Of a DNA stretch of 64,000 nt, positions 12,001 to 15,000 are shown one piece after another. The DNA is from Escherichia coli (GTDB taxonomy: Bacteria > Pseudomonadota > Gammaproteobacteria > Enterobacterales > Enterobacteriaceae), in the NCBI RefSeq assembly GCF_050920415.1, contig NZ_CP169309.1, one strand, 5' to 3'. The stretch's first letter is position 1. Each line of letters starts with the position of its first letter. The position numbers are program-made.

Positions 12001-15000
12001 TGAAACGGGCGTAAATCTTGAATGGTTGGCGACAGGACAGGGACGTAAATTTGATGATGATGAATTAGACATACTCAAAATCCCGCGCAGCAAGATTGTT
12101 GATGGCCAACTCTATGATGCTGGCATGTTAATGCTTGATAAAGTCACATTCCTGCCAGGCAAGCCATTACCTCAACAGCCAATTTGCGTTCTGGATGGCT
12201 TTGTCCAGTACATTATTGACCAGTCCTATTCTGAAGTTTATGACGATGAATGGTTGGTTGAAATTGAAGGGAAAACAAGCGTCCGAACTCTTACAAGAAT
12301 TCCTGTAAGAAAGGTCAGAGTTAGCGGTGTTGGTATGGCTTTTGACTGTAGCATTGACGAAATTAAAGTGCTTGGCCGCGTATTGTTGAGAATAACTCAA
12401 TAGAAACTCATAGCGAGCTCTAATTCAGTTTTAGCTCGCATTCCATGACTGCATGTCAAAGTGTTTACAGGGACTTTTCCAATGAATGAGCATATAACCC
12501 AAGCTTTATCAAATTACATAATCGAAGATAATCCAGGTTATGCAGTAATGATTACTGGAAAGTGGGGCACAGGAAAGACCTACACTATAAAGAATTTATT
12601 TCCTAATAATGAGATTTACTATATTAGTCTATATGGATTATCATCTGAAGCAGAAATTTACGCTACTCTTTTTGATGTAATGAATCCGGACAAAAAAAGG
12701 TAAAAAAATTATTTGATAAGTTTAAGGCTTTTGAAATTAATGCTTTTGGATTAAAAATCACCCCTGTTGTTATGATTTCTAGTTTTCTAAATCTTTCAGA
12801 AAACAAAAAAAACGTCAAACAAAAAACAATTGTTTTTGATGATCTCGAACGTTGCAATTATGATATTAACAATACGCTAGGTATAATTAACAGATATGTG
12901 GAACACTATGGTTGTCGTGTAATAGTTCTGTGTAATGAAGAAGAATTGCCAAGAGAAATATCTAAAATTAAAGAAAAATTATTTGGCTTAACATTATTCA
13001 TTGAATCTGATATTAAATCAGCATTTGATTCATTTACAAACAAAAACTCACACAATGAATTTAAAATTAATTTAGGTAAGTTAGTACAGGAAATTTTTAA
13101 GGCATCGAATTATTCATCTTTAAGAATTCTAAAACATGTAATAAATGACTGTGTAAAATTACTATCCTTACTAGAAGAAAAGCATAAAAACAATAAAGAA
13201 TTTTTAATTGAAACTTTCTCTGTATTCATCGCATTAGATATTGAAGCTAAAGCAGGTTTTCTATCAGAGAAAGATCTTCACCAACGCTTTTTACAATCTG
13301 TAATGGCTCAAGAATTTTTAAAGAAAAAGCAGGAAGATAATATCCCGCCAATCGTTAAAATTGATATAAAGTATCCATCCATTGCAATAACATCATGTGA
13401 AACAATATCCGAAAAGGATTTAATAGATATAATTTTCAAAGGTGTTTTTGATAAAAAAAGCATATGTAAAACTATTGATGAAAGCAATTTCTTCATTAGC
13501 AAGTGCAACATACCAAGTTGGCGCTTAATATATAACTATCATTCAATTGAAGATGATATTTTATATAGTGCTATAGAGCGTATGGAGAATGAATTCAACA
13601 ACAGATTAATTGACAATACTGGTTATATGATGCATATGTTTCATTTGCGATTACTTTTGGCTTACATGAATGAAATAGATAAATCATATGACGAAATAGA
13701 AAACCAATGTAAGCAATATATTGACGATCTTTATCAACAAGAAAGACTTCAGCCCATGATTGATGACGAATATTCAATTACAAGCATTCTTAACGCTTAT
13801 GAAAGTTGTCAGTACTGGGTACAACCAGAGTACGAAAATAACAGCAGAAACATAAAAAAACACCTCCGTGAAGTACAAAAAAAAGTATTTCAAGACCAAC
13901 TACCCAAATTACAACAGGATCTTCTAATAACATTAGGTAACGCACCTCGAAAGTTCAGTTCACTTATTTGCTATGATTACCAAACACCTGCTGAATATGC
14001 TTCTACTGAAATATTACATGGAATTAAAGTTGATGAATTTGTAGAGGCATGGCTATCATTACCGAAAAAAGAGATAATGATTATTAGACAAGCATTAATA
14101 AACAGATATAGCCATGGAAAAATTGATTCTTTTCCAAAAGAAAAAGACTGGTTGAGAAACATTGTTAGACATGTTGAGTTACGAGCTGAAGGTGAAAAAG
14201 GAGTTAAACAATTCCAAATTAAAAGTTATGTTGCAGGTGATCTTAGGAACCTCATACATAAATGATACTTTTAGGGAATATTATTTTTATACAAATTGAG
14301 AATCTGATTTTATGGCAGTAAGAAAATTATCTTCGGGGCAATGGATTGCCGACTTCTACACCGTCAACCGCAGCAACGGTAAGAACGGAAAACGTATACG
14401 TAAAAAGTTTGCCACGAAGGGAGAAGCCCTGGCATTTGAAAACCACACACTTCAAAAAATAGAGAGTGCGCCATGGTTGGGTGAAGGGAAAGACAAACGA
14501 ACTTTAATCGACCTGATTACGATGTGGTACGAACGCCACGGCGTAGCTTTGCGCAATGGTCAAAAACGTAAAGACGCTATGACTTGGGCGGCTGAGTGCA
14601 TGGGATTTCCACTGGCAACAGAGTTTAATGCCCAGTTGTTCACAGCTTACCGCGCTAAAAGGCTTGATGGGCATTATGCCCGCACTAACAGAGTATCTAA
14701 GGTTTCCCCGAAAACAATGAACCTTGAACATGCTTACTTTCTAGCTATGTTCAATGAACTGAAGCGGATCGGGGAATGGTCAGCTCCCAACCCACTGGAA
14801 AACGTCAGACAGTATCGCACTGATGAAACCGAAATGGCTTTCCTCACTGCTGAAGAAATTGATCGGCTTTTGCTGGAATGCAAACGAAGCAAAGTAAAAT
14901 ACTTAGAGTTAGTCGTAAAAATCTGTCTTGCTACCGGCGCAAGATGGAATGAAGCGGCAACTCTGAAAAGCTCTCAGATCGCTGGCGGTAAAGTCACGTT

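Follow-up and report, generated by a model that had tools for sequence, protein, structure and literature searches.

Single-gene defense by KAP-type NTPases is already known, as are prophage hotspots beside an integrase gene. Reve, a single-gene KAP NTPase of 586 residues from a P4-satellite hotspot (plasmid pFD425), brings the efficiency of plating of Drexlerviridae to between 1e-2 and 2.5e-6, and its authors assigned it a Foldseek/HHpred signature of an ORC motor module plus PF07693/PF13401 (bioRxiv 10.64898/2026.02.27.708500). The F plasmid encodes PifA, a KAP NTPase that lacks membrane helices and excludes T7 in an abortive-infection-type role; it is an exception among prokaryotic KAP members, for which a transmembrane insert is typical. 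In Enterococcus faecalis, EF_KAP and fusions of KAP NTPases to effectors provide defense that depends on Walker B (PMC12632615). PADLOC, finally, holds the PDC systems, 145 unvalidated candidates embedded in BREX, DISARM, or type I restriction-modification (RM) systems (Payne et al. 2024, bioRxiv 10.1101/2024.01.29.577857). Here we describe a KAP-like NTPase gene of Escherichia coli that belongs to one of these candidate classes, PDC-S49, and lies between the repressor gene cI and the integrase gene int of a prophage. The stretch analyzed, called the window throughout, comprises 64,000 nucleotides of chromosome (NCBI RefSeq assembly GCF_050920415.1, contig NZ_CP169309.1), and the right part of a 186/P2-like prophage, integrated at mntS, fills its first ~15.4 kb.

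We consider it somewhat better than an even chance (a probability of about 0.55) that intact alleles of this gene act in anti-phage defense of the lysogen, as a soluble single-gene KAP NTPase carried as prophage cargo. The earlier note on this DNA, made from the sequence alone, had proposed this KAP-like gene as candidate anti-phage cargo. The gene indeed lies where it was placed, on the plus strand, is AT-rich (29.7% GC), and carries the motifs GKWGTGKT and IVFDDLER. Defense stands as a candidate function, given the PDC-S49 match and a remote homology to Reve. The cargo segment, with a GC content of 0.30 to 0.35 against ~0.5 in its flanks, consists of one gene with 78 nucleotides upstream and 46 downstream, and no partner gene is present in these 1908 bp, as the note had said. 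Its alternatives of a single-gene system or a remnant both apply: the cargo is a single gene, and the copy in the window is frameshifted. Mechanical calling accordingly yields two plus-strand open reading frames (ORFs), at 12461-12703 (80 residues, GTG start) and 12772-14265 (497 residues). The likely start is the ATG at 12482 (MNEH...), as in the RefSeq annotation of the intact allele.

With the frame repaired, the product has 594 residues and differs from WP_097761518, the intact allele of JNE25-001, at one of them (E307K). A further allele, WP_166501509, is 75% identical. It matches Pfam KAP_NTPase (PF07693) over residues 3-187 (E 3e-7). Among homologues scanned singly, 45 of 61 match this family at E<=1e-3 and all 61 at E<=0.1, the best at 5e-24. 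Over its entire length the protein fits PDC-S49: the hidden Markov model (HMM) PDLC05031 aligns residues 2-593 with profile positions 6-614 of 624 (E 1.2e-128), and two further PDC-S49 models, PDLC05029 (E 3.8e-95) and PDLC05030 (E 2.4e-55), likewise cover about residues 1-593. The profile search that the earlier note had recommended thus returns both KAP_NTPase and PDC-S49. PHROG 4740 also matches (E 1e-76) and is annotated as of unknown function, and NCBIfam holds no family for the repaired protein. KAP proteins have a Walker A motif GxWGxGKT and a Walker B motif hhhhDDL(D/E)R, and GKWGTGKT and IVFDDLER conform to both. In a 61-member family alignment G26, W28, G29, G31, and K32 are invariant, as are D120, D121, L122, E123, and R124; R215 in the lid region and W347 are also conserved.

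The protein consists of an N-terminal KAP-type, AAA+-like NTPase domain, followed by an all-helical domain of ~400 residues without a known fold. In structure, the N-terminal domain best matches Cdc6/Orc1, TnsC, and MuB. In AFDB50 the full-length neighbors, hundreds of proteins of ~600 residues with template modeling scores (TM-scores) up to 0.79, all bear the name 'KAP NTPase domain-containing protein'. An exhaustive profile search returned 3781 representative clusters (50% identity) at E<=1e-30. The top 150 clusters are all 575 to 707 residues long and nearly all match end to end, which points to a large family with a fixed architecture of ~600 residues. For residues 190-594, Pfam scans of the protein and its 61 relatives found no effector or other known domain, a sequence profile search of the PDB gave E 0.28 at best, Foldseek against the PDB gave TM-scores of 0.2 to 0.3 with N-terminal matches only, and AFDB50 contained only 'KAP NTPase domain-containing' relatives.

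The two or four transmembrane helices typical of prokaryotic KAP proteins between Walker A and Walker B are missing. No membrane helix is predicted in the repaired protein, and the best 19-residue Kyte-Doolittle window of its insert scores 1.35; this maximum stays below 1.6, the membrane-helix threshold, in 59 of the 61 members. The insert is short and poorly predicted (residues 71-110 have a predicted local distance difference test score, pLDDT, of <60), and the distance from Walker A to Walker B is 82 to 100 residues in most members and 74 in one. Tmn resembles this family in being a single-gene P-loop NTPase defense with an insert between the Walker motifs, but the insert of Tmn holds two membrane helices and Tmn is a membrane decamer, whereas the insert here stays below threshold. 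We therefore rejected assignment to Tmn/YobI or to the classical membrane KAP proteins, as no membrane helix is predicted, 59 of 61 inserts are below threshold, and PADLOC gives no tmn match. A STAND/Avs sensor with a NACHT or NB-ARC module, a repeat sensor, and a fused effector was rejected as well, with no supporting Pfam match and no strong fold match. EF_KAP shares a KAP NTPase followed by a region of ~300 residues without a known domain, and is a single-gene defense needing Walker B; it differs in its two N-terminal membrane helices and its origin in Firmicutes (PMC12632615).

Using the Reve sequence from the preprint supplement, we find that residues 22-280 match our family profile (HMM 42.5 bits; hhalign 97.7%, 224 columns) and that its only PADLOC match is PDC-S49 (E 2.5e-11). 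The two proteins are of similar size (586 and 594 residues), place a KAP/AAA+-like NTPase at the N terminus ahead of a long helical region, share the signature of an ORC motor module with PF07693/PF13401, and are cargo of mobile elements of the P2/P4 system. In contrast, the C-terminal ~300 residues show no detectable similarity (the match there is negligible at 2 bits), so that homology does not extend over the whole protein. Furthermore, Reve is carried by P4-like satellites and the present gene by a 186-like prophage, and the measured phage phenotype belongs to Reve, whereas our family is known from sequence. PifA has the same KAP-type P-loop, GxWGxGKT, lacks transmembrane helices, and is a single gene on a mobile element, but it has 741 residues and pifC as a regulator. 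Orthology to PifA was rejected, as the alignment does not reach beyond the surroundings of Walker A (hhalign 66% over 41 columns; BLASTP E 0.03). The likeness to PDC-S49 lies in the full-length HMM match and the single-gene organization, although that class was defined inside BREX, DISARM, or type I RM systems and the present copy is a frameshifted prophage cargo.

Several observations weigh against a role in defense. PDC-S49 members rank as candidates, a full-text literature search for 'PDC-S49' returned no paper, and DefensePredictor left the PDCs out as unvalidated. Homology to Reve is confined to the N-terminal ~260 residues and that to PifA to Walker A; since nothing beyond these regions is covered, specificity and output are not transferable from either protein. 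The gene is rare (3 of 5426 complete E. coli genomes) and has repeatedly been found frameshifted, and such recurrence could mean that it is costly or dispensable. Expression from the lysogenic promoter is predicted from strand and position, and a promoter and terminator scan of 11600-15950 gave counts matching the shuffled expectation, so that there is no evidence of an internal promoter or terminator.

The position of the gene speaks for mobile cargo. By megablast, the three carriers among the complete genomes comprise two in which the cargo segment is 99.7% identical and one in which it is 77% identical. In all three it is flanked by cI and int, occupies one and the same chromosomal site, and encodes one 594-residue 'P-loop NTPase fold protein'. 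The slot is empty in at least 11 related prophages that E. coli carries at the mntS site, with the cI stop and the int ATG one base apart, which bears out the claim that the gene was inserted. To see how variable the slot is, we measured the cI-int distance in 70 IMG/VR loci encoding a relative of the window CI. The gap is ~4 nucleotides in roughly 27 of them; the others have gaps of 82, ~570-600, 720-765, 885-925, 1104, or ~1905-1920 nucleotides. Among the insert products are at least eight unrelated proteins, whose genes all lie on the strand of cI and int and have a GC content of 0.32 to 0.44, and the ~1.9-kb class contains either the NTPase (L017, L035) or an unrelated two-gene cargo. Thus, the cI-int junction of 186-like prophages is a cargo hotspot, since relatives have either adjacent cI and int genes or other AT-rich cargo in the slot. 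The earlier note had called this a typical spot for prophage defense genes and had suggested comparing it across related prophages; both the variable cargo seen here and the hotspots in the literature agree with that description.

The other cI-int cargos (examples in the IMG/VR loci L017-L086 are L026, ~6590-7165; L054, ~770-2660; L060, ~6590-7505; and L069, ~2395-3110) include a 185- to 192-residue protein (PHROG 2700), a pair of 366-369 and ~155 residues (PHROG 3364), a 290- to 304-residue protein with a TIR-like domain, a 167-residue protein with a ligase/BRCT-like region that also matches PDC-S48, and a multi-pass membrane protein of 238 residues; others have no match. On annotation with PADLOC and PHROGs these cargos mostly fall into PHROGs of unknown function or match nothing, bar the one with the TIR-like domain.

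P2-like prophages offer a precedent, having conserved positions with highly variable and often defensive cargo (PMC9122126). The classical hotspots of E. coli P2 elements are, however, at gpA-portal and in the late region, not between cI and int. A cI-int hotspot has been named in Vibrio K139-like relatives of P2, next to minor P2 hotspots at integrase-primase and integrase-att (Rousset et al. 2022, PMC9122126; bioRxiv 10.64898/2026.02.27.708500). A study of P2-like regulatory regions (PMC3448106) does not mention cargo between repressor and integrase, and the slot in E. coli 186-like mntS prophages is characterized by the present survey only. In the window, the classical hotspot between replication gene A and portal (6116-6736) contains only ogr and a short ORF, which leaves the NTPase as the sole sizeable cargo in this part of the prophage.

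Relatives also occur in other settings. Kosakonia has a 45%-identical gene in the same slot, and genes of 30 to 40% identity lie directly 3' of int in nine other IMG/VR loci and in a Yersinia prophage. A homologue in a Pseudomonas lambdoid prophage is situated between the lysis genes and Q, one in Bradyrhizobium adjoins a SIR2_2 gene and a serine recombinase gene, and another adjoins a P4-type integrase and a pyocin locus. A phage genome collection gave no close record and only five distant partial matches, and plasmids gave only distant relatives (<=29% identity). In Enterobacter roggenkampii CP143698 (L004:3148-9785), a prophage remnant without structural genes has retained cI together with an intact NTPase gene of 92% identity that adjoins a PIN_8-domain gene; int is uncalled in this locus, and the related draft contigs L005 and L006 have it as two ORFs. 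This looks like cargo retained after prophage decay.

Such neighborhoods bear on whether the NTPase might serve the prophage itself, for example as an AAA+ regulator of integration, excision, or replication in the manner of TnsC or MuB. The fold of its N-terminal domain, closest to ATP-dependent, DNA-bound regulators of replication and transposition (Cdc6/Orc1, TnsC, MuB), and its place before or after the integrase gene in many 186-like prophages would fit such a role. Yet most close prophage relatives lack the gene and have cI abutting int, so that the life cycle can do without it. Members of the family are also found apart from integrases, as in the lambdoid prophage and beside SIR2, and the family was catalogued from members embedded in BREX, DISARM, or RM systems. 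Moreover, the degraded Enterobacter remnant, with its int split and its structural genes gone, still keeps the gene intact. We therefore regard a role in the prophage life cycle as highly unlikely.

Selection argues that the protein matters. The ratio of nonsynonymous to synonymous substitution rates (dN/dS) is 0.08 to 0.11 in both domains among the two E. coli alleles and the Enterobacter allele, meaning that these alleles are under strong purifying selection. This is hard to square with neutral or decaying cargo, a moron remnant without current function in its host. The frameshifts in the window copy and in a common variant of the second E. coli allele would suit such a remnant, as would carriage by only 3 of 5426 complete genomes. 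But a dN/dS of ~0.1 holds between alleles and across genera, intact genes of 594 to 611 residues at 45 to 92% identity occupy the same slot, and the 3781 clusters keep a constant architecture; decay without function is thus improbable. The synonymous divergence (dS) between two E. coli prophage types (window 11819-15352 and L013) is very uneven, at 1.73 for the NTPase, 0.90 for cI, 0.34 for int, and 0.22 for cII, which suggests recombinational exchange of an immunity and cargo module on a more conserved backbone.

The state of the window copy requires separate consideration. Aligned base by base with the intact allele (L001), it has five substitutions, four synonymous and one nonsynonymous, and lacks one A in a poly-A run, which counts seven A in the window and eight in E. 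coli JNE25-001, the nearest genome. The frameshifted protein ends after 72 native residues, past Walker A and before Walker B, and the downstream ORF of 497 residues has no Walker A. NCBI lists both fragments, WP_432780813 (73 residues) and WP_432780814 (497 residues), from a single 5.31-Mb assembly. Because of this truncation before Walker B, the window copy is probably inactive, barring a sequencing error or partial correction by slippage.

A homopolymer error in sequencing or assembly, with an intact and functional 594-residue gene in the actual genome, is a serious possibility, if less likely than not. The lesion is the loss of a single A from an A8 run, a classic site of such errors; the split products are recorded from one assembly only; and the rest of the gene, with its four synonymous differences and one nonsynonymous difference, shows no decay. 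The gene is also often found at contig breaks in drafts, with many 'partial' entries. On the other hand, the deletion is the sole indel among 13,922 bases aligned to JNE25-001, and the neighboring core genes are intact, so that the assembly is not generally error-prone. In addition, a comparable lesion in the second E. coli allele indicates that real slippage mutations occur. There, another of the A8 runs (gene positions 318-325) has lost one base independently, which leaves a product of 116 residues (P0126), and this frameshifted form is present on at least 24 contigs from several sources, against ~21 contigs with the intact one; two of its copies, L087:3501-5284 and L088:2030-3813, are one further single-nucleotide polymorphism apart. 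Loss through poly-A slippage thus recurs in this gene, as two alleles have independent -1 deletions in different A8 runs.

Among the database entries for the NTPase gene (cluster members P0003 and P0114-P0138), most are 'partial' proteins that stop where a contig does. Breaks within this gene, rich in AT and in homopolymers, are therefore frequent in draft assemblies, and counts from draft genomes probably understate how often it occurs.

Conceivably, the poly-A runs could form an on/off switch, a contingency locus in which slippage during replication or transcription toggles or partly restores a costly defense gene. A8 and A7 runs occur three times each in the intact gene, the two -1 frameshifts arose independently in different A8 runs of two alleles, the frameshifted and intact forms of the second allele are about equally common, and the gene is otherwise under strong purifying selection. 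Runs of this kind are, however, expected from composition alone in a lysine-rich gene of 30% GC, eight bases is short for efficient phase variation, and the contigs with the frameshifted second allele may represent one clone. All in all, a switch seems very improbable to us.

The lysogenic promoter of 186, pL, is located upstream of cI, where it faces pR, and its transcript runs on through int. The NTPase gene is co-oriented with cI and int, and its catalytic signature is intact in the repaired frame. From strand and position we infer that it is transcribed with both genes from pL and would so be made in lysogens. The putative stem-loop right after the cI stop (Table 1) is not significant by folding (z -1.6), and the allele of 77% identity retains its arms with a G-U wobble.

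How an intact NTPase would defend the lysogen may be pictured as follows. The helical C-terminal domain of ~400 residues would act as a sensor, recognizing a phage-made protein or nucleoprotein complex. Binding might then bring the N-terminal NTPase into a state that depends on ATP and is oligomeric or active, much as happens in ORC/Cdc6, TnsC, MuB, and STAND-type switches. The block itself could consist of ATP-driven sequestration or remodeling of the target, or of recruitment of a host factor, options favored by the lack of a nuclease, protease, TIR, SIR2, or pore domain. Any particular output is less probable than defense itself. Following this reasoning further, PDC-S49 might represent widespread 'effector-less' anti-phage NTPases that work by ATP-driven assembly on, or remodeling of, a phage replication or packaging complex, with a poly-A slippage switch added in 186-like prophages, but to this combined proposal we give only a slim chance.

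The features of the locus are collected in Table 1. The identity of cI follows from the annotation 'phage repressor protein CI' in the near-identical locus L001 and from Phage_CI_repr and Phage_CI_C (Pfam) in homologous loci. The prophage ends at mntS, 3' of int, and is followed by opgE, ompX, rhtA, and dps.

Table 1. Features of the prophage and of its cargo segment, with positions in the window
Feature	Position	Strand	Remarks
Terminase and portal genes	within first ~15.4 kb		186/P2-like prophage
Replication endonuclease A	6736-8757	-	186/P2-like prophage
Dam-type adenine methylase, orphan	8754-9635	-	186/P2-like prophage
cII	10927-11430	-	186/P2-like prophage
apl-like gene	within first ~15.4 kb		186/P2-like prophage
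cI, 186-type CI immunity repressor	11819-12403	+	ORF, 194 residues; upstream border of cargo slot
AT-rich cargo segment	12404-14311	+	1908 bp, cI stop to int start
Stem-loop GCGAGCU / 13-nucleotide loop / AGCUCGC	12413-12439	+	right after cI stop; without U-tract
Putative ribosome-binding site AGGGA	12469-12473	+	8 nucleotides 5' of ATG; read from sequence; kept in LH13-b allele
KAP-family P-loop NTPase gene (PADLOC PDC-S49 family)	12482-14265	+	split by -1 frameshift; intact form 594 residues
Walker A / P-loop GKWGTGKT	12557-12580	+	residues 26-33; direct reading
Poly-A run, frameshift site	12692-12698	+	A7 (A8 in intact alleles); stop at 12701-12703
Walker B IVFDDLER	12829-12852	+	residues 117-124 of intact protein; now in downstream frame
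Region for all-alpha C-terminal domain	13050-14265	+	about residues 190-594
int, tyrosine integrase	14312-15352	+	346 residues; downstream border of cargo slot

Elsewhere in the window, two separate AT-rich islands hold minus-strand ORFs, 35498-37510 (670 residues) and 56326-58623 (765 residues, also with pentapeptide repeats), that resemble SopA-like type III effectors of the HECT-type E3 ubiquitin-ligase kind, below the family cut-off (88 and 157 bits, respectively, against 500). The AT-rich stretches 49003-51100 (minus strand) and 59107-60759 (plus strand), with a GC content of 0.29 to 0.34, contain three ORFs of ~155 residues and one of 550 residues, for which neither NCBIfam nor PADLOC gives a match.

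In conclusion, the novelty of this locus is low, because the family is catalogued as PDC-S49, the exact proteins are in RefSeq, and both the kind of system and the kind of location have been described. The message of the window itself is hence modest: a candidate family and a kind of location that are both known, with a gene copy that has probably lost its activity. Should the intact allele confer protection, however, one of PADLOC's 145 candidates would be validated, an E. coli-native and easily assayed member of a very large family would be at hand, and the cI-int junction of E. coli 186-like prophages would be documented as a cargo slot expressed together with the immunity repressor. The mechanism would be informative in its own right, given the constant layout of ~600 residues without a recognizable effector, and an ORC/TnsC/MuB-like mode of action, if true, would be one not yet described for bacterial immunity.

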